Assembly: GCA_029561465.1 (NCBI GenBank)
Contig: JAKQIZ010000078.1
Coordinates: 6,638-70,637, forward strand
Direction: 5' to 3'
From: Deltaproteobacteria bacterium
GTDB taxonomy: Bacteria; Desulfobacterota; Syntrophia; Syntrophales; UBA8958
DNA length: 64,000 nt
Numbering within the stretch: the stretch's first letter is position 1; each line of letters opens with the position of its first letter. The position numbers and the translations under genes were made by a program. Of this stretch, positions 38,702 to 58,266 are shown in pieces. The notes below the pieces were generated by a model that worked only from the letters and a program-made list of their open reading frames with translations, searched no databases and was not told where the DNA came from.

Positions 38702-38728
38702 CGGCCCGAGAAATCGTCCCGAAAGGAT

Positions 38729-40195: not shown

Positions 40196-40210
40196 GGCGT
40201 CATCAGCTAG

Positions 40211-41227: not shown

Positions 41228-41239
41228 TCCTATAGGTCC

Positions 41240-42052: not shown

Positions 42053-42074
42053 GTTGTCTCCCTGTTCACAGGCC

Positions 42075-42839: not shown

Positions 42840-42842
42840 GCT

Positions 42843-44144
42843 CTACATCCCTTCCGTCGCCGCGTATTTCAGTAGTTGATCTTTCTCCGCCAGCACCTTC
42901 TCCACCCCCCGGGCGATTTCCTCCATATCGGCAAAGGTCTGGGGCGGCCGGACGATTTCCGTGGAGATCACCATCTTTTCCAGCTCCTCCGCCTGGGGAC
43001 AGATCCCCCGCTCATAGCTCACCTCCCCCCGGTAAAAGGGGCAGGAAAACGGGCAGCCCTTGTCGCCGTAGCCGATCCGCCGCTGGTAGAGGGGCTGGAG
43101 ATAGAGGGGTTTCATATAGCTCACATAAAAGTCCAGGCCTTCGGCGTTCAGGGCCTTGACGAACAGGGGCGCATCGATGGGGATGACCTCCCGGTCTATC
43201 TTCAGGGCATAGCGGTAATAAACATGGGTGGAATCGGGCCGCGCTCCGGGCAACCCCAGGCCGGGGATGCCCCGCAGCCTTTCGTTGAGGTAGGATACCA
43301 GCTCCCGCCGCCTTTGGGTGAGGTCGTCCAGTTTCCGCAATTGTTCCCTGGCGATCGCCGCCTCGATCTCCGTCATGCGGTAATTGCCGCCGATCATGTT
43401 GACCAGGCTCCCCACGGCCATGCCCGCCGCAATCACCGCCTCGCCGTGGTTGCGGATCAGACGGAGCCGCTGGGCCAGATCGTCATCGTCCGTCACGGCG
43501 ATTCCCCCTTCGCCGCATTGAATGACCTTGTTGCAGTTGAGACTGTAAACGCCGATAGCTCCGATCGTCCCGGAGAGCTTGCCGTTGTACAACGCCCCGG
43601 GCGACTGGGCGGCGTCTTCGATGACCCGCAGGCCGTGCTTTTTGGCCAGATCCATGATGGGACCCATCGCCGCCGGGTGGCCGAAGATATGGGTGACGAA
43701 GATCGCCCGGCTCCGGGCGGTGATCCTCTCCTCCAACCCGGCGGGATCGAGATTGTAATGGTCCAATTCCACGTCGGCAAAAACGGGAATGCCGTTGAAG
43801 GCCAGAATCGCCGTCGCCGTGGCGCTCATGGTGAAAGGCGTGATCAACACCTCGTCTCCCGGCCCCACCGCGCAGGCGCCGACAGCGGCAAACAGGGCCG
43901 ACGTGGCGGAGTTGAAGCTCACGGCATACCGGACGCCGAACTTCTCCGCCCACTCTCCTTCCAGGGCCTTTACCTGCTCACCCCCCAGGAAGTATTGATT
44001 GTTCGTCCCCTCGAACTCGGAAAGGATCGCCCTTTCCAAGACGGCCAGGACCGCCTTCTTTTCCTCTTCCCCCGTCGTGGCATGGACGGGATAGCCTTTC
44101 GTCCGCAGCGGTTTACCCCCCAGCAGGGCTAATTGTGCGTGCAC
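42843..44144 (-). CDS. DegT-family aminotransferase, long (~430-aa) subtype
   Basis: LALLGGKP start, VIEDAAQSPGA, NCNKVIQCGEGG (Lys). GTG start at 44144. Confidence 0.85.
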   Translation of the reverse strand: MHAQLALLGGKPLRTKGYPVHATTGEEEKKAVLAVLERAILSEFEGTNNQYFLGGEQVKALEGEWAEKFGVRYAVSFNSATSALFAAVGACAVGPGDEVLITPFTMSATATAILAFNGIPVFADVELDHYNLDPAGLEERITARSRAIFVTHIFGHPAAMGPIMDLAKKHGLRVIEDAAQSPGALYNGKLSGTIGAIGVYSLNCNKVIQCGEGGIAVTDDDDLAQRLRLIRNHGEAVIAAGMAVGSLVNMIGGNYRMTEIEAAIAREQLRKLDDLTQRRRELVSYLNERLRGIPGLGLPGARPDSTHVYYRYALKIDREVIPIDAPLFVKALNAEGLDFYVSYMKPLYLQPLYQRRIGYGDKGCPFSCPFYRGEVSYERGICPQAEELEKMVISTEIVRPPQTFADMEEIARGVEKVLAEKDQLLKYAATEGM

Positions 44145-45127
44145 TTCCCCGGACCTCCCTGTCTTTCTATTTCTTCGATTACCCTTTGAATATCCAGATA
44201 CCTTTGGGGAGATACGACCGGGATGAGTTCGGGCGCGCCGGCCAGACGCACCAGCTGCGCCACGGCTCCGCCCAGGGCATAACCGATGGTGCTCCTGATC
44301 CCCCGCCGGACCCGCCGCAGCTCCCTGGCCCCCGTCTCCGCCCGGTTTTCCCCCGCTTCCCAGACGACGATCTTCAGTCCCTCGTCCAATATCTGTATTC
44401 TCCCCTCCGTACAGACGAAATCCATCTCGAAGAGACGGAATTTGTCAAAATCGCAGCTCTGAATGAGGCAAGGGATATCCCCCGGAAACACCAGATAGAC
44501 ATCGTAGGAATATTCCCTGGCAGCGGGGGAGTAACGCCGGTCGAGGACGGTTATCCGCTCCGGCGCCCCCAGGGTATGAATGAGGTAGCCCAGCAGATGG
44601 GTCCCCATATTCCGGAGTCCCTTGCCGATATAGCAGTTCACCCGCTGGATGGCCCCGTATTCACCCCGCTGCAGGAGGGATCGGACCTGGAGGTGGGACT
44701 TGTCGTACTCCCGATAGAGGTTGATCGTGATCTTCGCGTCGTCCTGTTCCGTCCAGCGGGCGACCGCCTCGATCTCCGCCGTTCCCCGGGTAAAGGGTTT
44801 TTCGCAGAAGATCACGGGAACGGATTTCCTGGCCGCCTGGAGAATCTCCAAATGGGTTTCCGGGTGGGTGCAGACGCTCAGGATGTCCAGGGGGTTTTCC
44901 GCCAGCATTTGCCGGTAGTCGGAATATAATTTCGCCACGCCCCACTGCGCGCCGAACCGCCGCCGCCGCTCCGCGTCGATATCGGCCCCGCAAACCATCT
45001 CCACCGCCGGATGGCGGGCGTAGGACCCGGCATGGGTCAGGCACGGATAAAAGACCTTCGCCCGGGCGTCCTCCTCGTAGAGGGAGGCGATGCGGCCCAG
45101 GCCGACAATCCCCGCCTTGATCTTCAT
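44129..45127 (-). CDS. Gfo/Idh/MocA-family NAD(P) oxidoreductase
   Basis: MKIKAGIVGLGRIA Rossmann motif and FCEKP. 332 aa. Confidence 0.85.
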   Translation of the reverse strand: MKIKAGIVGLGRIASLYEEDARAKVFYPCLTHAGSYARHPAVEMVCGADIDAERRRRFGAQWGVAKLYSDYRQMLAENPLDILSVCTHPETHLEILQAARKSVPVIFCEKPFTRGTAEIEAVARWTEQDDAKITINLYREYDKSHLQVRSLLQRGEYGAIQRVNCYIGKGLRNMGTHLLGYLIHTLGAPERITVLDRRYSPAAREYSYDVYLVFPGDIPCLIQSCDFDKFRLFEMDFVCTEGRIQILDEGLKIVVWEAGENRAETGARELRRVRRGIRSTIGYALGGAVAQLVRLAGAPELIPVVSPQRYLDIQRVIEEIERQGGPGKCTHN

Positions 45128-45398
45128 TTTTCTTCTCTTAGGCTTTTTGAAAACATTATCGATGATTGTGAATTATGTAAGCTTATCCATTCAATAATAA
45201 CGACATCGTAAAAGGTCAAAAAATGTTCCATTTGGGACGGCATCGTAAAAAGATCCGCAGGCGAGGCGCGCGAATCCTGAGGAATGAGGCGTACTTGTGC
45301 GTACGTCGCAGTGACGAGGGATGAAGCGCAACGAAGCATCCGGACTTTTTACGATGCCGTCAATAATACTAAAATGCTTTTTACATTTAGCAACTAAA
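45128..45398 (-). promoter_or_regulatory. AT-rich 271-nt intergenic region splitting the array; probable terminator/promoter/operator zone
   Basis: Largest non-coding gap in the window and visibly AT-rich. Contains three copies of a ~17-nt motif (CG[A/G]CATCGTAAAA[G/A]) at 45201..45217, 45238..45255 and, inverted, 45342..45359. Confidence 0.55.
45236..45361. repeat. long-range inverted repeat (21 bp with one bulge) enclosing an ~83-nt GC-rich core
   Basis: GACGGCATCGTAAAAAG(A)TCCG at 45236..45257 is the reverse complement of CGGACTTTTTACGATGCCGTC at 45341..45361. Confidence 0.85.
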
Positions 45399-47420
45399 TC
45401 AAATGAAACGTCGAACCATTTTATCTTCTCTTCCTTTTTCTATCTCCAGATTAAAGAAGGCCTCGACGACCTCGATGGGGATCTTCCAGAAATCGATGAG
45501 GCGGATGTCGAGATGGCTCCCCGTGAACCGCCGCTGCCGCCATTCTTCGTAGGAGATGCCCGCCGGCGTGTTCGGATAGGGATTGTAGAGGCTTACGGTA
45601 TAGCCGTCGGCACGGAGGGCTTTTGTGTTCGCGAACATCTCCTCGTACTGGGCGCGATTGAACCATTTACCCCCCAGCATGAGGTAGATGACGCAGTTGA
45701 TCCCCACCTCCTGAATGACCTTGATCCATTCCGCCGCCCCGGCGAGGCTCACCCGCTTGGTCTTGACCTGGTGCCTTTCGCTGAGGGCGTTTTCCAAGCC
45801 CAGTTTGAGATGGGTGCATCCCGCGGCCTTCATCGACCGCAGGAGCTCCACATCCAGGGTATCGTAGCGGCTCTCCACCCGCCAGGTGATGCCGGGGAAT
45901 TTTTCCGTAACCTCCCGGCAGAACTCCAGGGCCATGGCTTTGTCGGCGGTGAAGTTGGCGTCGATGATATAGAAGTTACGGATGCCATAGTTCTCGTACC
46001 GAATCCGGATGTCTTCCATAACCGCCGCCCGGGGGCGGCAGCGGATTTTACCTTTGTTGATCTCCGCCACCCGGCAGAAATCGCAGGTCCCGGCGCATCC
46101 CCGGCGCCAGAGGATCGTATCCAGGGAGGGGGGAGAGATTTCCGTAGCCATCGTCTCAAACCGGAAGGGCGGCAGACTTTTCAACCCGTGCTCGGAGAGG
46201 AGCCCGCCGTTGATCCGGCCCCGTTGATGGTTTTCCAGGATGGCCGGCAGGAGGCTTTCCACCTCGCCATGAACGATCAGGTCGAAATCCTCGGAGGCCA
46301 ACCCCACCTCGGGGCCGACGGCGACGATATAGGCCCGGGGATTCACTTTCCGGACGATCTTGGCGATTTTCTGGGAGGAATCCCAATTCCCGCTGTCAAA
46401 AGAGGGGTTCAGGATATCCCCGCAGGTAACGAACACCGTATCTGAGCCATGGGCGCGGAAATATTCCTCGAACGCCGGGAAGGCCTCGCTTCCGGCCAGG
46501 TGGTCATAGAATTCGACGGAATTGAAGACCATCTGGTAGCGGGTCACATAGTTTTCATGGGGTTCGGAATCGCAGTGGTAGGTCCGGTTGGGGATGTGCA
46601 GGGAATCCAGACGGGAGGAGATGAAGGCCGCCCCCATGTTGAGGCGGTTGTTATGGCTCCCCAGAAGCTTGTAGAACGGGGGTATCACCAGGAGGACATC
46701 CCGCCGGCCCCCTTGGGCAACAAAACTCCTCCTGGCAATGGGGGCGGCGACGCCGTCCAGTTCCTCCTCGATCATCCGCGTGATCTTTTCCGGAAAGATC
46801 ATGTTGTTTTCATAGGTGATCCGGATCGCGCTGATATCGGCGTTGACGGCGGGGACGATATCGTACTCGTAGGAACGTCCCACATAAACCATGTCCCGGG
46901 TATCCGCGGAAAGGATTTCGCCCAGTTGCCGAAGGATATCGTTTTTGTCCATACCCAGGTCGCAGGAAAAGAGACAGCGGTCGAAACAATCGCCCACGGC
47001 GAGCTTGTGGGAGAGGAATTCCTTCTGATAGGCCCAGAGATTGGAAACCACCACGAGGGTGTATTTCTTCTTCAGCGCCGCGAGCAGTTCCATGGCCCCG
47101 GGAACCCAGCGTATCTCCCGGGCGTCGTTGTCCATGAGGGCACGGAACTTCTGGATGATTTTCTCTTTCAAAGGCGACCGGGGATTCTTCAGGCTCAGCA
47201 GCATGGACGACGTCTGCGACGGGGTGACATTTTCAAAGAATCTTTCCAGAAAGCGGGCCGGCTCCGTCTCGGCAATCAACAGGCACCGTTTCTGCTGTTC
47301 CGGGGAGATCTCCTCGCCCGTAATATCCTGGTAAAATATGGAGATAGCCGAATCCTCCGTACCGAAGATCAGGGTTTCCCACAAGTCAAAAACTACAATT
47401 TTCTTTTTTTTATCAACCAT
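45399..47420 (-). CDS. fusion protein: degenerate HAD-like domain (N-terminal ~215 aa) plus B12-binding radical SAM domain
   Basis: VVFDLWETLIF (HAD motif I with the second Asp replaced), VVSNLW, YVGRSYEYD (degenerate motif IV). This is followed by a Rossmann-like region and CAGTCDFC (CX3CX2C). Confidence 0.8.
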   Translation of the reverse strand: MVDKKKKIVVFDLWETLIFGTEDSAISIFYQDITGEEISPEQQKRCLLIAETEPARFLERFFENVTPSQTSSMLLSLKNPRSPLKEKIIQKFRALMDNDAREIRWVPGAMELLAALKKKYTLVVVSNLWAYQKEFLSHKLAVGDCFDRCLFSCDLGMDKNDILRQLGEILSADTRDMVYVGRSYEYDIVPAVNADISAIRITYENNMIFPEKITRMIEEELDGVAAPIARRSFVAQGGRRDVLLVIPPFYKLLGSHNNRLNMGAAFISSRLDSLHIPNRTYHCDSEPHENYVTRYQMVFNSVEFYDHLAGSEAFPAFEEYFRAHGSDTVFVTCGDILNPSFDSGNWDSSQKIAKIVRKVNPRAYIVAVGPEVGLASEDFDLIVHGEVESLLPAILENHQRGRINGGLLSEHGLKSLPPFRFETMATEISPPSLDTILWRRGCAGTCDFCRVAEINKGKIRCRPRAAVMEDIRIRYENYGIRNFYIIDANFTADKAMALEFCREVTEKFPGITWRVESRYDTLDVELLRSMKAAGCTHLKLGLENALSERHQVKTKRVSLAGAAEWIKVIQEVGINCVIYLMLGGKWFNRAQYEEMFANTKALRADGYTVSLYNPYPNTPAGISYEEWRQRRFTGSHLDIRLIDFWKIPIEVVEAFFNLEIEKGREDKMVRRFI

Positions 47421-47440
47421 TTATCAACCTCTTCACCGGC

Positions 47441-48238
47441 TTATTGCCGGCCACTGAATCTGTTCCTCAGGAACTCCTGGTTTTGCCGCTCCGCGTCGGT
47501 CATGGTCTTTTCGTCCGTTCCCAGCATGGAAACGATCATCCGCTTGTATTCCACCAGCATCTTCAGCTCCAGGGGATCGGCGGAAAGGATATGATCCGTG
47601 CCGAAATAGGTCTTCGAAAGGGTAATGTGCTTCTCGATGACCGCCGCCCCCCGGGCCACCGCCACCAGGGGCGCCACGATGCCCAAGGTATGATCGGAGT
47701 AACCAACCTGGCACCGGTAACGCTCCCGGAGGTAGTCCATGGTCCGCATGTTGACCCGTTCATCCGGGAGGGGATATTCCGATACACAATGGAGGAGATA
47801 GAGGTCCACTTTTTTTAGCATTGCCACCGCCGCGTCGATCTCCGCCACGGAGGACATCCCGGTGGACAGGAAGACCTTGTCCGCCCGGTCGTTGACCAGT
47901 TTGAGGAGATCATGATCGGTGATATGAAAGGAGGCGATCTTCATGTCCCGCACCCCCAAAGAAAAGAGGTCCGCCGCCTTGGCGGCGTCCCAGGGGGTGC
48001 AGAGAAAGGCGATGCCCCGCTGGCGGGCTATCCCGTAGAGATAGCGCAACTGGTCCATGTCGAGCTGCACCTTCCGGAACCATTCCTTTTCCGGATCGCT
48101 GTCGGCACAGGCCTCGGCGTCATAGTACTGGAACTTCACATAGTCGGCTCCCGCCTCCCGGGAGACATCGATCATCTTCCGGGCGAGATCCATGTCCCCC
48201 AGGTGATTTTCCCCCGCTTCCGCAATGATGATGCACAT
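47441..48238 (-). CDS. NeuB/SpsE-family PEP-dependent sugar synthase homologue lacking the C-terminal SAF domain
   Basis: MCIIIAEAGENHLGDMDLARKMIDVSREAGADYVKFQ and GYSDHTLG motifs. Only 265 aa from ATG 48238. Confidence 0.8.
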   Translation of the reverse strand: MCIIIAEAGENHLGDMDLARKMIDVSREAGADYVKFQYYDAEACADSDPEKEWFRKVQLDMDQLRYLYGIARQRGIAFLCTPWDAAKAADLFSLGVRDMKIASFHITDHDLLKLVNDRADKVFLSTGMSSVAEIDAAVAMLKKVDLYLLHCVSEYPLPDERVNMRTMDYLRERYRCQVGYSDHTLGIVAPLVAVARGAAVIEKHITLSKTYFGTDHILSADPLELKMLVEYKRMIVSMLGTDEKTMTDAERQNQEFLRNRFSGRQ

Positions 48239-48254
48239 TTTCCTATCTACCCCC

Positions 48255-49226
48255 TCAGCCGAAGATTTTTCGCAACCGGACGACGGCCTCGTATTGGGAG
48301 ACATTATGCCCATGATCGCCGTTTTCCGGATCGATTTCCATGATCAGGGTCTCATCGCCCCGCACCTTTCCCAGCAGTTCCGCAAAATCCACATTGCCCC
48401 GACCGATGGGGAGACCCTCCGTGTAGAGATATTTGTCCATTTCGTCAAGGCCATCATCCGGCCGCCAGCGGCAGGCGTCGGAAACGTGAAAATATTCGAT
48501 GAAACCATTAACGAAGTCCGCCGCCGTCAGATACTCCGCCTGGGCAAGGTCTTCGGCGTAGATGTTGCCGAAGCGTACATCGCCGGCCAAATGCCCGTGG
48601 CGTTGCCGCATGTTGAACATGTTGGCCGACAGGACGGCATGGGCCGTATCGAGGAGAAAGCCCACCGATCCCAATCCCAGCTTCCCGACCGCTTCCGCCA
48701 GTATGGCCATATCCCAGGGAAAACAGTGATCCAGGGGGCTTACCGCATATTCCGCCCCCAATCCCGGCGGCAGCCACACGAATCCGTAGTTTTCCAGGAG
48801 GATCCTCACTCCCTTTGGCGCGGCGAGATCGTTCCACCGGGCCACCCGCTCGATGAATCCCCGCCGGGCCTCTTGCTTGGGGATATCGCGGTTAAATCCG
48901 TAACAGCAGTGCATGACCAGTTCGGCGGCGCCGATCCCCTCCGTAAAGGCCAAAACCTTCGTAAGTTTATCCGGATCATCGTCGATGGCGTCAAAGAGGT
49001 AACCTGTCTCGACATCCATGATGGGGAAATGGACGATAAACCGGCAGGCCTCGCCAAGCCGCCGCACCCCGGACATAAAAGCCGCCGCTTCCGGATGGAA
49101 GACATCCCTGGCGCCGAACAGATGGAGTTCGATGACCGGCGGGAGTCCCAGACGCCGAAAGCTCTCCCGGCGGTCCTGCAACTGGGAGGGAAAGACCGCC
49201 GCCTTCATACCGTATTTAAAAGCCAA
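48255..49226 (-). CDS. xylose-isomerase-like TIM-barrel protein (sugar phosphate isomerase/epimerase family)
   Basis: The overall pattern (LLDTAH, LLENYG, HVSD) resembles the AP-endonuclease-2/xylose-isomerase-like TIM family. Start is TTG 49226 or ATG 49208. Confidence 0.7.
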   Translation of the reverse strand: MAFKYGMKAAVFPSQLQDRRESFRRLGLPPVIELHLFGARDVFHPEAAAFMSGVRRLGEACRFIVHFPIMDVETGYLFDAIDDDPDKLTKVLAFTEGIGAAELVMHCCYGFNRDIPKQEARRGFIERVARWNDLAAPKGVRILLENYGFVWLPPGLGAEYAVSPLDHCFPWDMAILAEAVGKLGLGSVGFLLDTAHAVLSANMFNMRQRHGHLAGDVRFGNIYAEDLAQAEYLTAADFVNGFIEYFHVSDACRWRPDDGLDEMDKYLYTEGLPIGRGNVDFAELLGKVRGDETLIMEIDPENGDHGHNVSQYEAVVRLRKIFG

Positions 49227-49241
49227 GCCGGCCTCGCGGGG

Positions 49242-50306
49242 TTATTCTGACAAAACTCTTTCAAACTGTTCCATAATTGTTTTAACCGGGTCGCCTGACG
49301 ACGGAAGGGAATGACCGGGGGCATCCCCGCCCCGGCCTGCAAAAACGGCGTCGAGGCGTTCATATAGTTCGGCGGCCGTCGTTACGAGGCGGTCGGCGAT
49401 CAGGCGGTTGTGGGCATGAGGCGCCTTCCCCGGGCCGACGGGTTGAAAACTGATCACGGGGAGGCCGAGCAGGTGGGCCTCCGTGAGGATCGTGGAGGTC
49501 ATGCCAATGACGACGTCCGCCGCCTGGAGGAAACGGCATGCGGCGTCCCCTTCTTCAAAGGCCCAGTCGCTGCCGCCTCCCGGAGGGGCGAAAAAATCTA
49601 CGTAAAGCGCCCGGTCATCGCGGGGGTGGAGCCTGATCCGGAGGGAAAAGCCACCCCGGCCCCGCGCTGCGATGTAGGCGGAGAGGATATTCAGGATGTG
49701 GAGTTCGTCATAGCCGTACTTCTCCGTCTCCCCGGCGGCGGCGATGTATTCCGTACAGAAGGTGATCAGCCGTTTGCCGCCTAACCGCAACTCCTCCCGG
49801 AGCAGCTCTCTCTCCCCGGCGGCAAGTCGGCGTGCGGCTACCGCCGCGAGATAGGGCGAACCGGCAACGCTGATCCGCTCCCGGGGGACGCCGAGACGGG
49901 CCACGTCCGCCGCCGCCGCCTCGTCCGCCACGATGATCAGGTCGGGGAAGACCAGCTCGCCGTTCTTTTCAAATCGCTCCCGGCAGTGTTTCACCATGTC
50001 GAGAAGGCAGACGCTCTTCTTTCCCCACCCCCGGGCCGCGCGCCACAGGCGGTGCTCCACGTCCGACGTAGGCGCAGTGCCCGTCACGATCAGGTCGAAA
50101 TCCTTCCCCAAGCCATCGTCGAGCACCGCCTCCTCGTCGATCACCCGCCGGCAGAGATAATCTCCCGGTTCGATCTCCCGGGGCCCCAGGCAGCCCACGG
50201 CGTAACGTTCCCGGCAGGCGCGGAGGACCGGATGGATCATGTTGAAGGAACCGTGCTGGGTCGCCGCGAACAGGATGCGCTTCTTATCCCGCATCTCCGT
50301 CCGCAT
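49242..50306 (-). CDS. hypothetical GT-B-like protein (PseG/epimerase/transferase-like?)
   Basis: IRLHPRDD and VVIGMTSTILTEAHLLGLPVISF resemble a GT-B C-terminal half. Family not recognised. Confidence 0.45.
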   Translation of the reverse strand: MRTEMRDKKRILFAATQHGSFNMIHPVLRACRERYAVGCLGPREIEPGDYLCRRVIDEEAVLDDGLGKDFDLIVTGTAPTSDVEHRLWRAARGWGKKSVCLLDMVKHCRERFEKNGELVFPDLIIVADEAAAADVARLGVPRERISVAGSPYLAAVAARRLAAGERELLREELRLGGKRLITFCTEYIAAAGETEKYGYDELHILNILSAYIAARGRGGFSLRIRLHPRDDRALYVDFFAPPGGGSDWAFEEGDAACRFLQAADVVIGMTSTILTEAHLLGLPVISFQPVGPGKAPHAHNRLIADRLVTTAAELYERLDAVFAGRGGDAPGHSLPSSGDPVKTIMEQFERVLSE

Positions 50307-51270
50307 TGCCTTTGTAGTACAGCGGGGGGCACCAGTGATGGCCCGCCACCCAATCGGTGTTGGGAAAATCGCCGCCCTTCTTCATGATCCGGTGGCAGGG
50401 GGTATCGTAAACCTTTCCCGTCGATCTCTCCACGGGATCGAAGACGATGTACTTGTAATAACCCGACTCCATCCCGGCGGGAAAGAGGACCCGGTTCGGG
50501 AAGCGGGGATCGAGATGCCGCTCGGCGTACGCCCGTTTCCAGGCGACGATCTCGGCCAGCCGGTCCGTCTGGACGCAGCCCAAGGCGGCGGCAAACTCGC
50601 TCATCCGGTAGTTGAAACCCGCTACGCCGTAATCGGGTTTCCCGTAATTCCGGTATTGCCGGGCAAATTCGGCAAGGCCTTTGTCGGCCGTTACCAGCAT
50701 GCCTCCCTCGCCGGTGGAAATCGTCTTGGTGGCATAGAAGGAGTAAACGCCGGCCTCACCCCAGGAACCGGGGCGCTTCCCCCGCCAGGAGGCGCCGTGG
50801 GCGTGGGCGCAATCCTCGATCAGGACGATCCCCTTCTTTTTGCACAGGGCGGCGATCGCCTCGATCTCGAAGGCCACGTGGCCGCCGATATGGACCACCC
50901 ACACCGCGGCGGGCCGATGGGCCTCGATCTTCGCCTGCAAATCCGCGTATGACATGCACAGGTCATGGCGGTTGCAGTCCACGAACTCCACCGCGGCCCC
51001 GGCCTTGATCACACTCAGGGGCGTCGCCATGAAGGTGTTGGACGGGCAGAGGACCGTTTTCCCCGCCAATTGGAAATATTCCAGGGCCGCCAGGGCCGCC
51101 CCCGCCCAACTGGAAAAGGAAACGGACTCCAGACCGTTGTATTCCGACCATTTTTCCTCGAAGGTCCGGGTGAACCTCCCCTCCGTCCACTGATGGGTGG
51201 CGACGATGCTGTCCCAGTACTCATGGAGGGTCTTCAGGTCCTCCGTTTCGAAACCGATGGTAAATTTCAT
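50284..51270 (-). CDS. DegT-family aminotransferase (short, 328 aa)
   Basis: LIEDCAHAHGA and GVYSFYATKTISTGEGG (catalytic Lys). Confidence 0.85.
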   Translation of the reverse strand: MKFTIGFETEDLKTLHEYWDSIVATHQWTEGRFTRTFEEKWSEYNGLESVSFSSWAGAALAALEYFQLAGKTVLCPSNTFMATPLSVIKAGAAVEFVDCNRHDLCMSYADLQAKIEAHRPAAVWVVHIGGHVAFEIEAIAALCKKKGIVLIEDCAHAHGASWRGKRPGSWGEAGVYSFYATKTISTGEGGMLVTADKGLAEFARQYRNYGKPDYGVAGFNYRMSEFAAALGCVQTDRLAEIVAWKRAYAERHLDPRFPNRVLFPAGMESGYYKYIVFDPVERSTGKVYDTPCHRIMKKGGDFPNTDWVAGHHWCPPLYYKGNADGDAG

Positions 51271-51274
51271 GATC

Positions 51275-53218
51275 TCATGCTCCTCGTAATTCAGCGACTA
51301 CGGCCTTGACGGCATCGGCGCCGGCAAAAGGGGCGCCGATGTTGTTTTCCCGGAGATACCTTTCCGCCGCGCGATCCAGGGACGGGGGCATGGCGCCGGA
51401 AGCTTCCCGATCACGCAGAAAATCATTCATGAATCTCCCCACCCGGCGTGAGGCGTCGAAATCACCGAAATAATTATAACTTTCTTTCCATCGAGAAAAG
51501 TCCCCCACCGTTTTATCCCCATCCGCCGCCCGGATGATTGCCGCTTCCAGATCTTGCCGGCGCCGGAAGATAAACCGCTGTTCACCGTCGCGATAAAACG
51601 GATGCCGATACCATCGGGAGCAATCCCAATGCACCACTTTGTGCCCATGGACGGCGCAGACAATACCGGCGGAATTCAGACCGTAACACACGGAAAGATG
51701 GGCCCGGGCCGCCGCGGCCAAAGGAGAGGCGGTGGGGGCGAGCGCCTTCAGGCGCCGATCGGCAAGCAGCCGGTGGATATTATCCTGCCCCTCCGCGCCG
51801 GTGATGAAGGACGCCATGTCATCCAAGCGCCAGTTTTTGCTTTTGACGATGAGCCCCCAGGAGGGCCGCCGGACGGCGAGGGAGAGGAGCCAACGGTAAA
51901 ACGCCGCCAGCGTCGCTTCGGTCTGATGGATGTTGTAAGACGCCGACGAATCGAAAACGGCCAACACGAAATCCACCTCCGGCGGGAAAGGCGCCGGGTC
52001 TTCGTTTTCGTCCGTCCCGGAGGCGCCCAGCCACATCCCCGCGGGAAGGAGATAACGGCTCGTGTGACCCGTCTGGCGGACAAAATCATATATCGCCTGC
52101 CCCCAGACAAAGAAGACGTGAAAGGGAAAGAGGTGGTTTTGGGTCATGACGGTAGGATAATTCGACCAGTGCAGGCCCATGAGGATGCCTCCGGCCGCTT
52201 CCACCGCCCGTGCCCACATCTCCTGCCGCCACGATGTGTCGTGATGCTGGATGAGGATGCGGACTTGAAACTTGCGAAACAGCGACGCATAAATTGCATA
52301 GTTCAGATTATAGAGAAAAAACAGATAGCCGATGAGGAGCGGATAACGTCGGAGGGCCGTCCACCCCGTGGCGAAAATCCTCGCCAGCCCCCGGAAGGTC
52401 ATCCCGCTCATCCGCACCGCCGCAAGGAAGTGGGCGTCCACCCATTTGCATCCTTGCCGGTTCAGCAGGCGGATCGTCGCCTCATCGGCCGGGGTGTCGC
52501 CGCGAAAGAGGAAATAAACGAGATCGTAATGATGCAGATCGACGTGCTCCCGCCAAAAGGTGAAATCAAGGCCGCTGCTGTGTTCAAATTCCACCCAGAT
52601 AGCCGGCTTGTCCCCGGTGATGTTGGCACGGACCTTCCCGCCGGTCGACATTCCATATATCAGCAGGGGGATGTAAAGCAGCAACCTCAGCAATATTCCC
52701 GGCTTCTCGTTCTTTAACCCGCCGTTTTTGATGATCAGACCGGTCTGCTCGTAGAGGCGGGCGATGAAAATATTCAAGGAGTGATTTTTCAGGTAGATTT
52801 CATCGACCAGGGCTTCTTTTTCCGCCCGGCCGCGGATCTTTTCCCGCACCATCTCGATGAAGGCGATCCGCTTGTAGAGGCTGTCGAAAAGAAAACTCCT
52901 CACCATGTTCATCTGGGCGGGATGCTCCGGCCAGGCCAGTTCCCGGCCCAGGGTCGCCAGGCATTGTTCGATCTTGTCCCGGACCTCATAGGCCAGCCCC
53001 TCCCCCTCCTCATCGCGGCGATCCAGGCAGAGGGACGCCGCCCGTGCGACCAGGGGCAAACCGATCTTTTCCATCAGCCCGATAACAAATATCGGCCCCG
53101 GGGAAGCCTGGTGCTCATCGTAATGGACGATCAGGCGGTTTCCGAGGGACCGGAGGAGGATGGTCAAGAGGGCGCCGGGGCCTAATTTCTGGATCCAGAG
53201 CGCGCGCGTGGGTTTCAT
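51275..53218 (-). CDS. large hypothetical protein (~647 aa)
   Basis: Long ORF in operon context. ATG 53218 (MKPTRALWIQKLG) is preferred over TTG 53347 and ATG 53329, whose extra residues look non-coding. No family recognised. Confidence 0.5.
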   Translation of the reverse strand: MKPTRALWIQKLGPGALLTILLRSLGNRLIVHYDEHQASPGPIFVIGLMEKIGLPLVARAASLCLDRRDEEGEGLAYEVRDKIEQCLATLGRELAWPEHPAQMNMVRSFLFDSLYKRIAFIEMVREKIRGRAEKEALVDEIYLKNHSLNIFIARLYEQTGLIIKNGGLKNEKPGILLRLLLYIPLLIYGMSTGGKVRANITGDKPAIWVEFEHSSGLDFTFWREHVDLHHYDLVYFLFRGDTPADEATIRLLNRQGCKWVDAHFLAAVRMSGMTFRGLARIFATGWTALRRYPLLIGYLFFLYNLNYAIYASLFRKFQVRILIQHHDTSWRQEMWARAVEAAGGILMGLHWSNYPTVMTQNHLFPFHVFFVWGQAIYDFVRQTGHTSRYLLPAGMWLGASGTDENEDPAPFPPEVDFVLAVFDSSASYNIHQTEATLAAFYRWLLSLAVRRPSWGLIVKSKNWRLDDMASFITGAEGQDNIHRLLADRRLKALAPTASPLAAAARAHLSVCYGLNSAGIVCAVHGHKVVHWDCSRWYRHPFYRDGEQRFIFRRRQDLEAAIIRAADGDKTVGDFSRWKESYNYFGDFDASRRVGRFMNDFLRDREASGAMPPSLDRAAERYLRENNIGAPFAGADAVKAVVAELRGA

Positions 53219-53411
53219 TGCCGGAAGGCTTTGCGTAACCGGGGTCCTTGCCTGACGCCGCCCCCAGGGACCGAACGATGGTGGAGATGCCGGTTTCCCC
53301 GCGCAAAAGGCAGGGAAAGACCCGGACATGACGCGAGACCTTTGCAAAACTCTGTTCCCGCCTCCATATTGTCATTCCTGCAAAAGCGGTAATCCAGTAT
53401 TATCAAGGAGT

Positions 53412-54905
53412 TCATGGATTCCGGGTCGAGCAGCTCTCCCGCTGCCGCTCGTAGGCGTCTATCCGCCGCAGATCCAGATTCACCATGAGCTCCCGCAGGC
53501 CCAGGAGTTCCACCGCGTTGAACCGGCTGGAAATGACCGCCGTGATCTTCGTCGCGTCGCCCAAATCGAGGAGAAAATCTTCGAGCCGGTGGTCATACTG
53601 GGCCAGGATCTTCTCCTTGAAGAGGGAATACCATTCCGAACCGGGATAAGGGGTGGCGAAAAAGGGATAGGCCCGAATCCCCAGTTTCTTCCAGGCGACG
53701 ACATTGCCCCGGATACTGTCAAAGGACTCCTCGGGAAAACCGATGATCTGGTTCGGGATAGGCCTGATCCCCGCCTTCATCGTCTCGATCACGGCCTGGG
53801 CATTGAGCTTGGCCGTACTCCCCTTGTCGATGGAGGTCAGGATGGCGTCGGAAAAAGATTCCAGGCCGTAGTCGAGATGGGCGCAGCCCAGTTCCTTGAA
53901 TCCGCGCAGCAACTCCGGGGTTACCACCGCCGGATGGGCCGTTGTACCCCAGTGAATGCCCCCGCAGGTCTCCGGATCATGATCCCGGCGCTCCGTGATG
54001 CAGCGGGGCCGCAGCCCCGCCCGGACCCAGAGGGCGCGGAAGGTGTCGAACCATTTTTTCCTCTTGGCCAGGACGGCGAAATTTTCATCCAGAAAGGAAA
54101 CGAAATCGATGCCGAATCTCTTCTTGGCCTCCGCGACCATCGCCACGACGTACTCCGGCGAATGGGCCCGCACCTTCCGCTTGGAGGTGAGACACAGCCG
54201 CCGTCCCGCCGGTCCTTCCACAATCTCGATCTCCCCGCTCAAGCCGAGATGGAAACAGTACTTGCACCGGTAGGGACAGCCGTAGCTGGCGATCACGCCG
54301 AGATGGCGCTTCGCCAGCATGGCCTCCTCGCTCAGCAACAAGCCGCTGTTGCGGAAGTAGATGTCCAGGGGAAACAGGTCCCAGGCGGGAAAGGGCAGCG
54401 TGTCCACCTCCTCCAGGAGGGGCCGGCCGGCCGTCAACTGGCAAACGCCGTCCCGGTCTCTATAAATGAGGCCGGGAATCTCATGCCAGTCTTCCTCGGC
54501 GGCATCGACCCGGGCCAACACGTCCGGCAAGGTGACATATCCCTCCCCGATCACCCCCAGATCGATTTCGGGAAGCAAGGCCATCACCTCATGCGGGATC
54601 GGGGTGAGGAAACCGCCGCCGGCGACCGTCAGGGCCTGGGGACAGGCCTTTTTCACGTACCGCAACACCTTCTTGACGAAGCCGTAGGTGGTGACGAGGC
54701 CGCCGATGGCAACCACCCGCCATTCATCCGCCTTCAGTACCGCGAGGATTTCGTCGTCCGTCGGACGCCAGGCATTGGCATCGAATACCTGCACCTGATG
54801 CCCCGCCCGGACGCAAATGGCAACCAGTTGCGCCATCCCGAAAGGGACATGGGCGGGTTTTTCGTTTTCCCGAATCACGGGATTGATAAAGAGAATCTTC
54901 GCCAT
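53412..54905 (-). CDS. B12-binding-domain radical SAM enzyme (class B)
   Basis: N-terminal Rossmann-like region (VQVFDANA...VVAIGGLVTT...VAGG). CPYRCKYC (CX3CX2C). Confidence 0.85.
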   Translation of the reverse strand: MAKILFINPVIRENEKPAHVPFGMAQLVAICVRAGHQVQVFDANAWRPTDDEILAVLKADEWRVVAIGGLVTTYGFVKKVLRYVKKACPQALTVAGGGFLTPIPHEVMALLPEIDLGVIGEGYVTLPDVLARVDAAEEDWHEIPGLIYRDRDGVCQLTAGRPLLEEVDTLPFPAWDLFPLDIYFRNSGLLLSEEAMLAKRHLGVIASYGCPYRCKYCFHLGLSGEIEIVEGPAGRRLCLTSKRKVRAHSPEYVVAMVAEAKKRFGIDFVSFLDENFAVLAKRKKWFDTFRALWVRAGLRPRCITERRDHDPETCGGIHWGTTAHPAVVTPELLRGFKELGCAHLDYGLESFSDAILTSIDKGSTAKLNAQAVIETMKAGIRPIPNQIIGFPEESFDSIRGNVVAWKKLGIRAYPFFATPYPGSEWYSLFKEKILAQYDHRLEDFLLDLGDATKITAVISSRFNAVELLGLRELMVNLDLRRIDAYERQRESCSTRNP

Positions 54906-54907
54906 GA

Positions 54908-55954
54908 TTATGTGGTCCTGGTTGCTGCGGAGTAGTCCCGACCGTCGTGAAAAAGCGACAGGATCTCGACCAGAGGCCGGAATTCTATCCCCGGGCCGAA
55001 CAGTATCCCCCCTTCCGTACAGTTGAACGTCGGGGCCGGCGCCATCTGGACCAGCTTGAGAAAGATCTGGGCGTACCAGTAATAGCCCGGATCCGTAAGC
55101 CAGGTTTCCCGGAGGTGGGGATTGTAGATATTGACCAGCCCCCGGGCGGGGTCATCGGGGAAAATTTCCTTTAAATGCTCATAGTACTGGGTGTTTTCCG
55201 GTTTCGTCCCCGGCGGATAGGAACAGTCCATCCCCACGACGGCCACCGCGGCGCTCCGGAGGATGGATTGCGCGAAGACCCAGGCGGAAGTGCCGACGTT
55301 TCCCCCCGTCACCATGCAGGAAACCTTGTTCAGGCGGAAAACCGTCCGGGAAACGCTGTCCGGTCGGTCATAATCGTCATAGAGAGGATTCCACCAATAA
55401 AGTTCCATCCCGGCGGCACGGCATCGTTGCGCGATCTCGGGAGAGGAGCTGGTGGCGATGATCAGCTTTATCCGGGACGCGTAACGGTTCACCAGGGCGA
55501 TCATTTCCTCGTTTTTCCGTTCTTCGTCCTTATGGAGGGCGGGATCGAGGTCCTGACGGCGAAAATAATCGTCGGCGGGGCGTTCCGTCAAGCGGGGATC
55601 GCCGAACCAGCGAATGATCCGATGCGGGTCGGGATCGACGGTGAGGACATACTCGGGGATCAGCCCGTTACGGAGACAATGCCCCAAGGCCCCGTCGGCG
55701 CATACGATGGGTCCTTCAAAACCGCGGTCCTTGATCTTCCCGATCGAATTCCGTTTGTGGAGGCTGGGGCCCGCCGAGATGACCAGGGCGGGCCGGCGGG
55801 GCGCCGGCGCCAATTCCGCCTGCAAGTCCCGGATGGTCTTTTGCAGATAGGGAAGGTTCGCCCGGGCATGCTCCAGACCCCGGGCCGCCGTCTTCCTCAG
55901 GGTGGCCTCGGAAAGGAGACGGAACTGTTCTTCACTTAACGTCATCGTCGCCAT
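54908..55954 (-). CDS. DUF115 / Maf (motility-accessory-factor)-like protein, putative nonulosonic-acid transferase
   Basis: PALVISAGPSLHK ... IVCADGALGHCLRNGLIPEYVLTVDPD matches the DUF115 core. Start is uncertain (ATG 55954 or 55945; the ORF-track start 55984 is TTG). Confidence 0.7.
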   Translation of the reverse strand: MATMTLSEEQFRLLSEATLRKTAARGLEHARANLPYLQKTIRDLQAELAPAPRRPALVISAGPSLHKRNSIGKIKDRGFEGPIVCADGALGHCLRNGLIPEYVLTVDPDPHRIIRWFGDPRLTERPADDYFRRQDLDPALHKDEERKNEEMIALVNRYASRIKLIIATSSSPEIAQRCRAAGMELYWWNPLYDDYDRPDSVSRTVFRLNKVSCMVTGGNVGTSAWVFAQSILRSAAVAVVGMDCSYPPGTKPENTQYYEHLKEIFPDDPARGLVNIYNPHLRETWLTDPGYYWYAQIFLKLVQMAPAPTFNCTEGGILFGPGIEFRPLVEILSLFHDGRDYSAATRTT

Positions 55955-56117
55955 CCCAGACGAATTGATCCGCCTTGACCACAAAGGCGATGCTGCCGCC
56001 CAGTTTTTCCAGGGCCTTGCTTTCGAACACCTTGGTAAAATCGTTGTTCGCCGCCGCGGCGGTTTCGTTGTCTTCCTTGCGGTCTATTTCATAATTTCCC
56101 TTCAGCAGCTTACTCAT
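55932..56117 (-). CDS. small acidic hypothetical protein (61 aa)
   Basis: ATG preceded by AAGGAG with a 6-nt spacer. Overlaps the upstream stop by 8 nt and the downstream start. The composition does not look like a GC-rich shadow ORF. Confidence 0.55.
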   Translation of the reverse strand: MSKLLKGNYEIDRKEDNETAAAANNDFTKVFESKALEKLGGSIAFVVKADQFVWDGDDDVK

Positions 56118-56829: not shown

Positions 56830-56833
56830 AGCT

Positions 56834-58204: not shown

Positions 58205-58266
58205 AATTCCCCTTTCTATACCTTTGAAAACAGGCTTCGCCGCGGCTCAGAAATCTTTTTCCTTTC

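Follow-up and report, generated by a model that had tools for sequence, protein, structure and literature searches.

A NeuB homologue that lacks the SAF domain lies at the centre of a conserved gene block in a Syntrophales polysaccharide locus

The SAF domain of the synthase NmNeuB, including residue Arg314, has been reported to be essential (PMC11339185). A 2021 survey found the domain in only 70% of 13,941 NulO synthases (PMC8208679). NeuB proteins that lack SAF are therefore already known (about 30% of sequences, and PDB 6ncs) and not new as such, but those known from the survey and from PDB 6ncs are uncharacterised and have not been assigned as ordinary NulO synthases. Leptospira interrogans offers a precedent: its second synthase gene, neuB2, encodes an extra, non-SAF domain, and downstream of it lie an aminotransferase gene and neuA2, which encodes a second CMP-synthetase (PMC3438082, PMC4758666).

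The window we analysed, a 64,000-nucleotide stretch of a Syntrophales genome, is a Wzx-type polysaccharide locus that contains a canonical, complete-looking legionaminic-acid (Leg)-type gene set at 56110..63982. As originally predicted, the canonical neuB carries a SAF domain, and it exceeds the NCBIfam NeuB cut-off of 399.65 with a TIGR03569 score of 454 bits. The original prediction also coupled a second, short synthase (NeuB-short) to a TIM barrel, a GT-B-like protein and a short DegT; all four open reading frames were recovered on the minus strand and their linkage is conserved. Packing is tight: neighbouring genes are 15-20 nt apart or show a slight overlap. The relevant features are:

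36854..38701, minus strand: LIC12162-like protein, 615 aa, distant LIC12162-family candidate transferase; syntenic
38729..40195, minus strand: B12-binding radical SAM enzyme, 488 aa; syntenic
40211..41227, minus strand: radical SAM/SPASM enzyme, 338 aa; syntenic
41240..42091, minus strand: SAM-dependent methyltransferase, 283 aa; syntenic
42075..42839, minus strand: CTP_transf_3 cytidylyltransferase, 254 aa; syntenic at 67-88% identity
42843..44144, minus strand: DegT-433, full-length DegT aminotransferase of 433 aa with a Cys-rich insert; syntenic
44129..45127, minus strand: Gfo/Idh/MocA oxidoreductase, 332 aa, by Pfam/NCBIfam match
45399..47420, minus strand: HAD-like domain fused to a B12-type radical SAM enzyme (HAD-rSAM), 673 aa, by Pfam and NCBIfam matches; directly downstream of NeuB-short
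47441..48238, minus strand: NeuB-short, 265 aa, NeuB-family TIM-barrel PEP-condensing synthase without SAF domain
48255..49226, minus strand: xylose-isomerase-like TIM barrel, 323 aa (PF01261, 47.4 bits against a cut-off of 31)
49242..50306, minus strand: GT-B-fold protein, 354 aa, likely start 50294; contains IRLHPRDD
50284..51270, minus strand: DegT-short, DegT-family PLP aminotransferase of 328 aa with a reduced C-terminal domain (PF01041 positions 9-250 of 360)
51275..53347, minus strand: PFTS protein, 690 aa, candidate polysaccharide-assembly or transferase protein; syntenic
53412..54905, minus strand: B12-binding radical SAM enzyme, 497 aa, by Pfam/NCBIfam matches and synteny
61492..62697, minus strand: canonical NeuB/LegI-type synthase with NeuB and SAF domains (PF08666, E = 1e-10), used as comparator

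The maximal open reading frame of NeuB-short spans 47441..48313 (290 aa). Translation almost certainly begins at the ATG at 48238 (MCIIIAEAGENH), which yields 265 aa; GGGGGTAGATAGGAAA precedes this codon, which lies 16 nt past the TGA stop of the gene upstream, and a database protein of 100% identity (P0001) is likewise called at 265 aa. Consistent with the predicted NeuB homologue that ends before SAF, the protein contains the motifs IIAEAGENH, YVKFQ and GYSDHT, covers positions 1-240 of the 241 in the Pfam NeuB profile (PF03102, E = 4e-67) and shows no SAF domain in a Pfam search. It falls below both the NeuB and PseI equivalog cut-offs of NCBIfam. The one point in favour of a truncated, frameshifted or decayed gene is its short length, and this reading is refuted by several observations. 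The TAA stop (47441-47443) is separated by just 20 nt from the ATG of the next gene. A SAF profile derived from 42 canonical NeuBs and run on a six-frame translation of the window matched the canonical neuB alone, and near NeuB-short or in syntenic loci it returned nothing at E < 0.1 other than the canonical NeuB of locus L087 and a 37-aa relic in L093; it also revealed no free-standing SAF, either in the window or in those loci. The best 120 database homologues are all 253-290 aa long and NeuB-only, those sampled for an NJ tree were monophyletic with respect to 42 SAF-containing NeuBs, and the best PDB match, the solved 290-aa chain of 6ncs, aligned to its end without a SAF-length extension. 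In addition, catalytic residues are invariant and the surrounding synteny is conserved. The absence of SAF is therefore genuine and not an error.

Residues corresponding to NmNeuB E25, K53, Q55, K129, S132, Y186, H215, E234, H236 and D247 are all retained in NeuB-short, and its metal and PEP site is intact. In NeuB-short, Glu134 of NmNeuB is replaced by His and Phe112 by Trp, changes that each recur in 35 of 41 clade members, and the SAF residue Arg314 is absent. An FLRNRF tail is also conserved in the clade. These signatures imply an altered sugar pocket, as opposed to an enzyme in decay.

The TIM barrel is a candidate metal-dependent sugar epimerase or isomerase. Its AF2 model (pLDDT 93) gave ketose 3-epimerases, MJ1311 and IolI (1i60) as best Foldseek matches (TM 0.53-0.59), and the invariant residues E145, D193, H247 and E297 are placed at strand ends. 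The family is small: a search of 1.84 billion representatives gave 35 clusters at E <= 1e-10, and its members lie on contigs whose lengths recur among the NeuB-short matches. For the GT-B-fold protein, which had been left unassigned, the presence of the fold and of IRLHPRDD was borne out and an assignment can now be proposed. Pfam returned just sub-threshold Glyco_trans_4_4 and Epimerase_2 matches, and orthologues have a weak precomputed PF02350 match. The AF2 model (pLDDT 86) matched UDP-GlcNAc 2-epimerases, including the hydrolysing NeuC 6vlb, at TM 0.69, with GT4 and TagF/TarL-type enzymes matching almost equally well. H227-P228 is invariant. Most Epimerase_2 catalytic motifs are missing, and profile similarity is marginal (hhalign probability 14%, PDB profile E 0.26). 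By its modelled fold the protein is nearest to UDP-sugar 2-epimerases and is a candidate NDP-sugar hydrolase or epimerase of a divergent, Epimerase_2-like kind. Such a step is part of the usual logic of NulO pathways, which makes the module less alien than the original prediction had it. A more distant SAF-less locus has a PseG-type Glyco_tran_28_C gene in the equivalent position. DegT-short has PseC as its top NCBIfam match, under the cut-off, and perosamine synthase, QdtB and KdnA among its PDB matches; it keeps the Schiff-base Lys182, which is conserved together with the C-terminal deletions in 8 orthologues.

Instead of a self-contained four-gene module, these genes form the centre of a conserved, uncharacterised block of at least 13 genes that is seen in several anaerobic bacteria. 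The order PFTS, DegT-short, GT-B, TIM barrel, NeuB-short, HAD-rSAM, Gfo, DegT-433, KdsB-like cytidylyltransferase, methyltransferase, radical SAM/SPASM, B12 radical SAM and LIC12162-like is kept on ten contigs (about seven distinct organisms), judged where a contig covers the position, with NeuB-short 61-88% identical among them. Exceptions are L100, where GT-B is missing, L083, where the methyltransferase has diverged, and L098, which lacks the Gfo gene that is otherwise syntenic (6/7 covering contigs). Where NeuB-short is at least 61% identical, it directly adjoins the TIM barrel in 10/10 covering contigs and DegT-short lies just upstream in 8/8; HAD-rSAM adjoins NeuB-short in 10/10 syntenic loci. 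In the wider SAF-less clade, too, the gene immediately upstream of NeuB-short encodes a DegT from the lineage of DegT-short. As had been proposed, the combination does not resemble the Neu, Leg or Pse pathways: none of 80 canonical NeuB+SAF loci had homologues of the TIM barrel, GT-B, HAD-rSAM, PFTS or 615-aa LIC12162-like proteins. The four genes are nonetheless not an indivisible unit, since the distant locus L103 has a trio of DegT-short-like, TIM barrel and GT-B-like genes without an adjacent NeuB, and no TIM-barrel gene adjoins the more distant SAF-less NeuBs (54-59% identity).

The block is an operon-like cassette of about 13-17 genes, covering approximately 36854..54905 of the window and possibly extending up to 58204. 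Besides a Gfo/Idh/MocA protein and a cytidylyltransferase and second DegT of its own, it encodes radical SAM enzymes (three B12-type, one SPASM), a methyltransferase and two candidate transferases. The cytidylyltransferase, a candidate CMP-ulosonate synthetase, is more KdsB-like than PseF-like, through KdsB matches that span just ~120 residues, so both an 8- and a 9-carbon product are possible. DegT-433 is matched best in the PDB by Fic25 8gyh (E 3e-61, full length) and is 39% identical to a paralogue at 56834..58204. Motif I of the HAD domain reads FDLWETL, with an invariant Trp at D+2. The PFTS protein had no match in local Pfam or NCBIfam copies, and its orthologues are annotated PF27878 (PFTS_polysacc).

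We consider it slightly better than an even bet (roughly 0.55) that the products of the cassette assemble a second, extensively tailored ulosonic (sialic-acid-like) sugar, convert it to its CMP form and transfer it, supplying the surface polysaccharide that this Syntrophales locus encodes, parallel to the legionaminic-acid-type pathway. The short span of the KdsB matches, the marginal Epimerase_2 similarity of the GT-B protein, the divisibility of the four-gene set and the reported need for SAF in NmNeuB count against this. Given a gene set unlike Neu, Leg and Pse and a complete-looking Leg-type set alongside, the different PEP-derived ulosonic acid of the original prediction is the most economical reading. 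Family- and fold-level gene identities, SAF absence, the intact metal/PEP site, clade-specific active-site changes and synteny are directly supported; for the substrates, order of steps and product we infer the following. A nucleotide-sugar intermediate would be aminated by the PseC/LegC-like DegT-short with its catalytic Lys, keto groups coming from the Gfo/Idh/MocA oxidoreductase and perhaps also a radical-SAM dehydrogenase, and DegT-433 would add a second amino group. The very divergent Epimerase_2-like GT-B protein might then remove the nucleotide, as NeuC, LegG and PseG do in their pathways, and the metallo-TIM barrel could epimerise or isomerise the free sugar before NeuB-short condenses it with PEP. 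The KdsB-like enzyme would make the CMP-sugar, the B12 and SPASM radical SAM enzymes and the methyltransferase would tailor it, and the PFTS and LIC12162-like proteins would be responsible for transfer. As the conserved block contains neither a 4,6-dehydratase nor an N-acetyltransferase, the early steps could follow the Leg/Pse scheme only if the adjacent pathway supplied intermediates.

That gap also fits an explanation we regard as unlikely, namely that NeuB-short works only with a cap partner, either the canonical NeuB in a heterodimer (SAF in trans) or the TIM barrel as replacement cap or channelling partner, and that the cassette modulates or diversifies the Leg pathway without making a separate sugar from scratch. 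SAF-containing NeuBs occur near NeuB-short in the window, L087 and L042, a second NeuB in L088 is fused to CTP_transf_3 without significant SAF, and the NmNeuB report, the lack of a detectable free-standing SAF and the different C-terminal domain in the SAF position of Leptospira neuB2 (PMC3438082) point the same way. However, L081, L083 and L093 have no canonical NeuB within ±10 kb, a limited reach, no fusion of the TIM family to NeuB occurs among 105 matches, the SAF-less NeuBs at 54-59% identity manage without a TIM-barrel neighbour, and the cassette encodes a distinct cytidylyltransferase of its own. Somewhat less probable still is a division of the block in which DegT-short, GT-B and the TIM barrel produce or alter a polysaccharide hexosamine without feeding NeuB-short, which would instead act on another substrate in concert with HAD-rSAM, DegT-433 and the cytidylyltransferase. 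The L103 trio, which adjoins NTP-transferase and SDR dehydratase-like genes, would suit such a unit, as would L104, where a GT-B-like gene adjoins a Gfo gene without TIM barrel or NeuB, and the pair of DegT-433 and KdsB-like cytidylyltransferase that recurs alone in L087, L089 and L104. It is opposed by the adjacency of the TIM barrel to NeuB-short in all 10 covering contigs at 61% identity or more and by the position of DegT-short upstream, also across the wider clade.

The cyclitol-derived product of the original prediction, by contrast, is unsupported, because the block has no cyclase (neither inositol-phosphate synthase nor 2-deoxy-scyllo-inosose synthase) and NeuB chemistry requires an aldehyde acceptor. 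An aminocyclitol or cyclitol route would combine IolG-like oxidation, IolI/IolE-like TIM chemistry, inosose-type transamination and BtrN-/AprD4-like radical SAM steps. Each has some counterpart here: the Gfo protein has IolG as top NCBIfam match (partial region), the TIM model matches IolI 1i60, scyllo-inosose and 2-deoxy-scyllo-inosose aminotransferases are among the top PDB matches of both DegTs, and the radical SAM proteins have weak AprD4 and twitch-domain matches. These matches are all far under family cut-offs, nucleotide-sugar enzymes match equally well and the cytidylyltransferase is of CMP-ulosonate type, leaving this route very improbable.

Two further observations concern proteins of the cassette. 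The 615-aa protein matches TIGR04331 under the cut-off (E 7.5e-6), and its L081 orthologue bears PF27859. The radical SAM/SPASM enzyme and the cytidylyltransferase together match the spirochaete 'spiro-SPASM' fusion.

Four consecutive ORFs on the minus strand occupy 47441..51270 of the window, and the last of them encodes a short homologue of the nonulosonic acid (NulO) synthase NeuB:

50284..51270, minus strand, DegT-family protein of 328 aa (DegT-short)
49242..50306, minus strand, 354-aa protein with an IRLHPRDD motif (GT-B); orthologues point to a start at 50294
48255..49226, minus strand, xylose-isomerase-like TIM barrel of 323 aa (TIM)
47441..48313, minus strand, maximal ORF of the NeuB homologue (NeuB-short); likely start ATG 48238

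Translated from this ATG, which is the most likely start and lies 16 nt past the TGA of the TIM gene, NeuB-short has 265 aa and the N-terminus MCIIIAEAGENH; P0001, a database protein 100% identical to it, has likewise been called as 265 aa. Pfam assigned NeuB-short the NeuB domain alone, with a complete barrel (PF03102, profile positions 1-240 of 241, E 4e-67) and no match to the SAF domain PF08666. The canonical neuB of the window (61492..62697) encodes both NeuB and SAF domains and scores above the NCBIfam NeuB equivalog cut-off. NeuB-short is 36% identical to this protein and falls below the equivalog cut-offs for NeuB (TIGR03569, 249 vs 399.65 bits) and PseI (TIGR03586, 191 vs 340.25 bits).

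The next gene begins, with ATG, 20 nt past the TAA stop codon of NeuB-short. We built a SAF profile (HMM) from 42 canonical NeuBs and ran it on the window and 10 related loci, each translated in six frames. In the six frames of the window, canonical neuB was the only match. A free-standing SAF ORF was found neither in the window nor in the 10 related loci, where the profile matched canonical NeuBs and a 37-aa relic, and provision of SAF in trans from a small ORF was rejected on this basis. The relic, an open stretch at L093:5296-5406 (E 7e-9), lies in a syntenic locus between the DegT-short gene and the gene for a protein termed PFTS (690 aa in the window), and probably derives from a canonical NeuB.

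The best 120 homologues of NeuB-short among 5.8 billion proteins were all 253-290 aa long and contained the NeuB domain only, with named sources including Dissulfurispiraceae, Elusimicrobia, Omnitrophica, Dehalococcoidia and Rokubacteria MAGs. When we computed a neighbour-joining tree from the barrel columns, 41 sampled short NeuBs formed one clade, apart from 42 SAF-containing sequences. In the alignment the short NeuBs end ~45-47 residues ahead of the canonical C-termini; their conserved FLRNRF tail corresponds to the strand with which SAF would begin. The 20-nt gap, the lack of SAF-like sequence in any frame except at canonical neuB and the uniform length of the best 120 homologues exclude that the SAF domain was lost to a frameshift or truncation. 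Together with the separate clade and the solved relative 6ncs, which also has no SAF-length extension, they leave a negligible chance that the short neuB is a truncated gene or reflects a sequencing error. The original prediction, that a 265-aa NeuB homologue ends before the SAF domain, is thus borne out by Pfam, residue alignment and the SAF profile, and the loss of SAF by sequencing error, which it had considered, is excluded by these results.

To our knowledge, every characterised NulO synthase relies on a SAF cap domain. A survey of 13,941 NulO synthases found SAF in only 70%, placed the SAF-less ones in 'environmental' branches and stated that the consequence of lacking SAF 'remains to be investigated' (PMC8208679). 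SAF-less homologues are therefore known to exist (PMC8208679; 6ncs) but are uncharacterised, rather than being established as ordinary NulO synthases, a possibility that the original prediction had allowed for. Since such proteins were already known, what is new here is the cassette, as defined below, with its private partner families.

We aligned NeuB-short to the characterised Neisseria meningitidis synthase (NmNeuB, PDB 1xuu) and counted residues across the 41 short NeuBs and the canonical set. The metal ligands His215 and His236 are kept in NeuB-short and in 41/41 sampled SAF-less members, as are the PEP-binding or catalytic residues Lys53, Lys129, Ser132, Glu234 and Asp247 in 41/41 and Glu25 in 40/41 (NmNeuB numbering throughout); Gln55 and Tyr186 are also conserved in the clade. 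Two positions differ. Glu134 is replaced by His in 35 of the 41 short NeuBs, where 40/41 canonical sequences have Glu or Asp, and Phe112 is replaced by Trp, again in 35/41. In canonical synthases the SAF domain gives Arg314 to the active site of the partner subunit, and NeuB-short, having no SAF domain, has no equivalent of this residue. Glu134 is one of three proposed catalytic glutamates of NulO synthases, and the change of Phe112 to Trp in SAF-less sequences has already been remarked on (PMC8208679). According to a passage in PMC11339185 that cites Joseph et al., the SAF domain is essential for NmNeuB catalysis. With the metal and PEP residues kept, Glu134 and Phe112 changed and Arg314 absent, the sequence of NeuB-short looks like that of a competent PEP- and metal-dependent enzyme with a remodelled and open sugar-binding side.

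NeuB-short therefore has in common with the canonical NulO synthases (NeuB 1xuu, PseI 8h2c, LegI, SpsE) the PF03102 barrel, the His-His metal site, the PEP-binding Lys, Ser and Glu, and a NulO-type neighbourhood with a DegT and a cytidylyltransferase. Unlike them, it is devoid of SAF, has His for Glu134 and Trp for Phe112, and ends with the FLRNRF tail. Its best solved relative is PDB 6ncs (E 5e-45), deposited as 'N-acetylneuraminic acid (sialic acid) synthetase', which we take to be a structural-genomics entry from Leptospira borgpetersenii. The alignment reaches residue 283 of the 290-aa 6ncs chain, leaving no room for a SAF domain, but in contrast to NeuB-short 6ncs has Asp at the Glu134 position and Phe at the Phe112 position. 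Our literature search retrieved no functional study of 6ncs; the one citing paper found uses it solely as a modelling template (PMC11339185).

Sequence-profile searches of TIM and GT-B against PDB sequences were only marginal, so fold searches were needed. TIM scores 47.4 bits against PF01261 (gathering score 31.1) and has no NCBIfam match, and a 100% identical protein from a Syntrophales MAG is named just 'TIM barrel protein'. Its AF2 model (pLDDT 93) retrieved ketose 3-epimerases, MJ1311 and IolI in Foldseek (TM 0.53-0.59, E ~1e-10). Four invariant residues, E145, D193, H247 and E297, map to the ends of predicted strands; by our reading of the model, they would fit the Glu-Asp-His-Glu metal site of the superfamily as a candidate site. 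TIM shares fold and PF01261 membership with the D-allulose and D-tagatose 3-epimerases, the inosose isomerase IolI and MJ1311, but is only 13-18% identical to them, is longer (323 vs ~290 aa) and belongs to a small separate family. A profile search of 1.84 billion representatives yielded 35 clusters at E <= 1e-10, beyond which the matches fell off sharply to generic barrels, and a Rosetta-stone search with the family profile in the same set found NeuB-TIM fusions in 0/105 matches.

GT-B showed no significant match to a sequence family in Pfam, NCBIfam or a PDB sequence-profile search (E 0.26). It scores 17.3 bits against Epimerase_2 (PF02350, cut-off 30.6), its orthologues carry a weak precomputed Epimerase_2 match, and comparison of its family with the window's own Epimerase_2 protein gave an hhalign probability of 14%. 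The AF2 model (pLDDT 86) has the two-Rossmann GT-B fold and resembles UDP-GlcNAc 2-epimerases (1f6d, 6vlb, 7vyy, 3ot5; TM 0.62-0.69), hydrolysing NeuC among them, with GT4 and TagF/TarL structures scoring only slightly below. GT-B thus has its fold in common with the hydrolysing UDP/GDP-HexNAc 2-epimerases NeuC and LegG and with the hydrolase PseG (NeuC 6vlb and 5xvs are among the best TM scores), and its gene, like those of NeuC, LegG or PseG in NulO clusters, lies just upstream of the synthase. As we read the alignment, the His-Pro motif occupies the place of the histidine in the epimerase VHLNP motif. Unlike NeuC and LegG, the protein falls below the Pfam cut-off and most epimerase catalytic acid motifs are unrecognisable; the four catalytic residues of Epimerase_2 (Asp, two Glu and His) have plausible counterparts only in the HP histidine and a single Asp.

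DegT-short belongs to PF01041 (E 3.5e-63) but covers only profile positions 9-250 of 360, and its C-terminal domain is not full-length. Eight orthologues of 324-332 aa have conserved deletions in this domain, and internal and terminal deletions are apparent relative to the DegTs of three other loci (L086, L087, L089) and the 433-aa paralogue of the window (DegT-433). The Schiff-base Lys182, within ATKTIS, is kept in all orthologues. The nearest NCBIfam families, PseC and LegC, are both under cut-off, and the nearest structures are perosamine synthase, QdtB and KdnA.

The four genes lie within one large Wzx-type polysaccharide locus that extends from ~10.8 kb to the right end of the window and encodes an initiating Bac_transf, GT4s, a flippase, AsnB-like amidotransferases, PAPS supply and several SDRs. 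It also contains a canonical legionaminic acid (Leg)-type set comprising a CBS-NTP-transferase, Epimerase_2, NeuB with SAF, a PglD-like acetyltransferase, DegT and a PseF-like cytidylyltransferase. We compared the window with contigs carrying NeuB-short relatives at 61-88% identity, which represent ~7 distinct organisms: MAG contigs L081 and L083 (the latter repeated by L084 and L085) and metagenome contigs L090-L094, L096, L098 and L100 (L101 repeats L094). Wherever a contig covers the position, the order is constant: PFTS_polysacc, DegT-short, GT-B, TIM, NeuB-short, a HAD-B12-radical-SAM fusion, Gfo-Idh-MocA, DegT-433, CTP_transf_3, methyltransferase, rSAM-SPASM, B12-rSAM and a 615-aa LIC12162-like protein. 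The exceptions are L100, without GT-B, L098, without Gfo, and L083, in which the methyltransferase has diverged. In several loci the block continues upstream into a B12-rSAM, a Maf-like protein, a PseF-like cytidylyltransferase and a 456-aa DegT.

A profile scan of genome contigs with the family alignment returned mostly canonical NeuB loci at 35-45% identity, which served as a control (n=80). Homologues of the TIM, GT-B, HAD-B12-radical-SAM, PFTS and 615-aa genes were found in 0/80 of these canonical NeuB+SAF loci. A 4,6-dehydratase (LegB/PseB) and an N-acetyltransferase (LegH/PseH) are absent from the conserved block in all syntenic loci, and in the window these functions are confined to the neighbouring canonical set (PglD-like gene 62547..63212). 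The survey of other genomes suggested with the original prediction thus produced a clade of short NeuBs and a syntenic cassette in ~7 organisms. The four genes had been proposed to form a module; they are indeed coupled, but the real unit is bigger, with a 13-gene order kept. The gene combination is, as had been noted, unlike the neuraminic (Neu), Leg and pseudaminic (Pse) pathways.

Beyond the four genes, the cassette cytidylyltransferase (42075..42839, minus strand; PF02348, E 6e-32) is syntenic at 67-88% identity and closer to KdsB than to PseF. It matches positions 21-226 of TIGR04321 'spiro-SPASM protein', and the rSAM-SPASM protein (40211..41227, minus strand) matches positions 230-502. 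The two genes thus look like a split version of a spirochaete fusion, which suggests that the radical SAM enzyme acts on a cytidylylated substrate. DegT-433 (42843..44144, minus strand) and the 456-aa DegT (56834..58204, minus strand) are paralogues with 39% identity and a common Cys-rich C-terminal insert (GCPFSCPFY, GCPWSCHLY). The best solved relative of DegT-433 is Fic25 (8gyh), which has been grouped with the homodimeric aminotransferases AziC7 and GDP-perosamine synthase (PMC11726168).

The HAD motif I of the HAD-B12-radical-SAM fusion (45399..47420, minus strand) reads FDLWETL, with Trp at D+2 invariant in 9 orthologues. Classical HAD phosphatases have DxD in motif I, with a nucleophile Asp and a general acid/base Asp at +2, and a Trp in place of the second Asp indicates that this domain is no classical DxD phosphatase. 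This DLW motif weakens the idea, modelled on animal NANS/NANP and a 2012 Leptospira proposal, that the substrate is a phospho-sugar on which a HAD phosphatase acts afterwards.

Among more distant relatives, SAF-less NeuBs at 54-59% identity occur in the context small ORF, DegT, NeuB-short, GT2, SDRs and cytidylyltransferase, with no TIM, and a 46%-identical SAF-less NeuB of 268 aa (L088) comes after a PseG-type Glyco_tran_28_C gene. Two genes downstream of the latter, L088:11856-13640 encodes a 594-aa NeuB and CTP_transf_3 fusion. Partner-like genes also occur with no adjacent NeuB: L103:1-3044 contains a DegT-short-like gene, TIM (34% identity) and a GT-B-like gene (29%), and L104:8984-11071, inside a Pse-like cluster, contains Gfo, a GT-B-like gene (32%) and a gene for a 748-aa protein. 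What stays constant in the wider SAF-less clade is NeuB-short paired with a DegT from the lineage of DegT-short; the TIM and GT-B genes were added in the subclade to which the window belongs.

The cassette is a genuine variant of a NulO biosynthetic cluster, conserved and uncharacterised. Our favoured reading, with a probability of about 0.55, is that it forms a second pathway whose product is a tailored ulosonic acid activated with CMP. From family and fold assignments, conservation and synteny, we infer the substrates, step order and product as follows. DegT-short and DegT-433 would carry out amination, and Gfo, perhaps with a radical SAM enzyme, oxidation. The GT-B protein would strip the nucleotide, TIM would epimerise or isomerise the freed sugar, and NeuB-short would join that sugar to PEP. 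The KdsB-like cytidylyltransferase would then attach CMP, the radical SAM enzymes and the methyltransferase would tailor the sugar, and PFTS and the LIC12162-like protein may carry out transfer. The main weaknesses are that the block is without a 4,6-dehydratase or acetyltransferase, that the predicted GT-B assignment is at fold level only, and that sugar binding by a SAF-less barrel has no explanation so far.

On this last point, NeuB-short might depend on a partner cap, which we consider unlikely. The block might also consist of two independent sub-modules, which seems quite improbable. A cyclitol pathway, the source of one product suggested in the original prediction, carries very little weight because the block has no cyclase and NeuB needs an aldehyde. 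The observation underlying that prediction was confirmed and its interpretation only in part. As an extension of the CMP-activated ulosonic acid pathway, the SAF-less NeuB clade and its private partners could tentatively define a new ulosonic acid class, radical-SAM-tailored and made by a capless synthase. Candidate private partners are the metallo-TIM epimerase/isomerase, the Epimerase_2-like GT-B, the HAD-B12-radical-SAM fusion, the split 'spiro-SPASM' pair and the KdsB-like cytidylyltransferase. If so, the product might be a C-methylated, deoxygenated or extra-aminated 8- or 9-carbon sugar made by anaerobic radical-SAM-dependent chemistry, and the SAF cap would be replaced by other substrate recognition, possibly a protein partner.

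The literature search found no paper on the cassette or the TIM family, and the nearest described analogue of the second, atypical synthase sub-module is that of Leptospira interrogans. There, a second synthase gene, neuB2/sas (NP_711794), is accompanied by an aminotransferase (LA_1614) and neuA2 (LA_1615), and encodes a C-terminal extra domain that has been read as phosphatase- or endonuclease-like (PMC3438082, PMC4758666). Like NeuB-short, NeuB2 is an additional NulO synthase paralogue, encoded next to a complete Leg pathway and distant from other synthases; its extra domain is not SAF, and its own DegT-type aminotransferase and a second CMP-synthetase come after it. Counterparts of the LIC12162 and spiro-SPASM families, which were defined on spirochaetes, exist in the window in split or distant form. 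NeuB2 of Leptospira carries its extra domain as a C-terminal fusion, whereas in the window TIM is a separate upstream gene, and since the TIM-family profile search found no NeuB fusions, homology of the two is unproven.

The recognition of bacterial surfaces depends in large part on nonulosonic acids such as sialic, legionaminic and pseudaminic acid. SAF is missing from about 30% of database NulO synthases, and this locus is a clean and conserved example that lends itself to experiment, with an intact PEP/metal site, defined substitutions, its own activating and radical-SAM enzymes and an adjacent canonical pathway as internal control. Solving it would give function to a large NeuB branch and a small orphan TIM family, inform the PFTS, LIC12162 and spiro-SPASM families, present too in the Leptospira NulO/O-antigen region, and could uncover new anaerobic sugar-tailoring chemistry.

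In addition, several other genes of the polysaccharide locus stood out. Four minus-strand proteins had no match in our local Pfam copy: 27079..28821 (580 aa), 15961..17052 (363 aa), 36854..38701 (615 aa) and 51275..53347 (690 aa). Orthologues of the 615-aa and 690-aa proteins carry the recent families PF27859 (LIC12162) and PF27878 (PFTS_polysacc), respectively. The gene for a short MptE-like/Maf-type protein of 358 aa (54908..55984, minus strand) separates the canonical Leg set from the second cassette; the protein is kept at 62-65% identity in L083, L092 and L094; its weak match to the flagellin modification protein PseD implies that the target may be protein as well as polysaccharide. The two AsnB-like glutamine amidotransferases (20799..22736, 645 aa; 13375..15291, 638 aa; both minus strand) suggest amidated uronic or ulosonic acid residues. 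Finally, a 755-aa protein (17674..19941, minus strand) fuses a pyruvate-kinase barrel (PF00224) to PUA_2 and ATP-sulfurylase, an unusual combination, and adjoins an APS kinase gene (17135..17854, minus strand). The pair looks like a PAPS supply within the glycan locus, which points to a sulfated polysaccharide.
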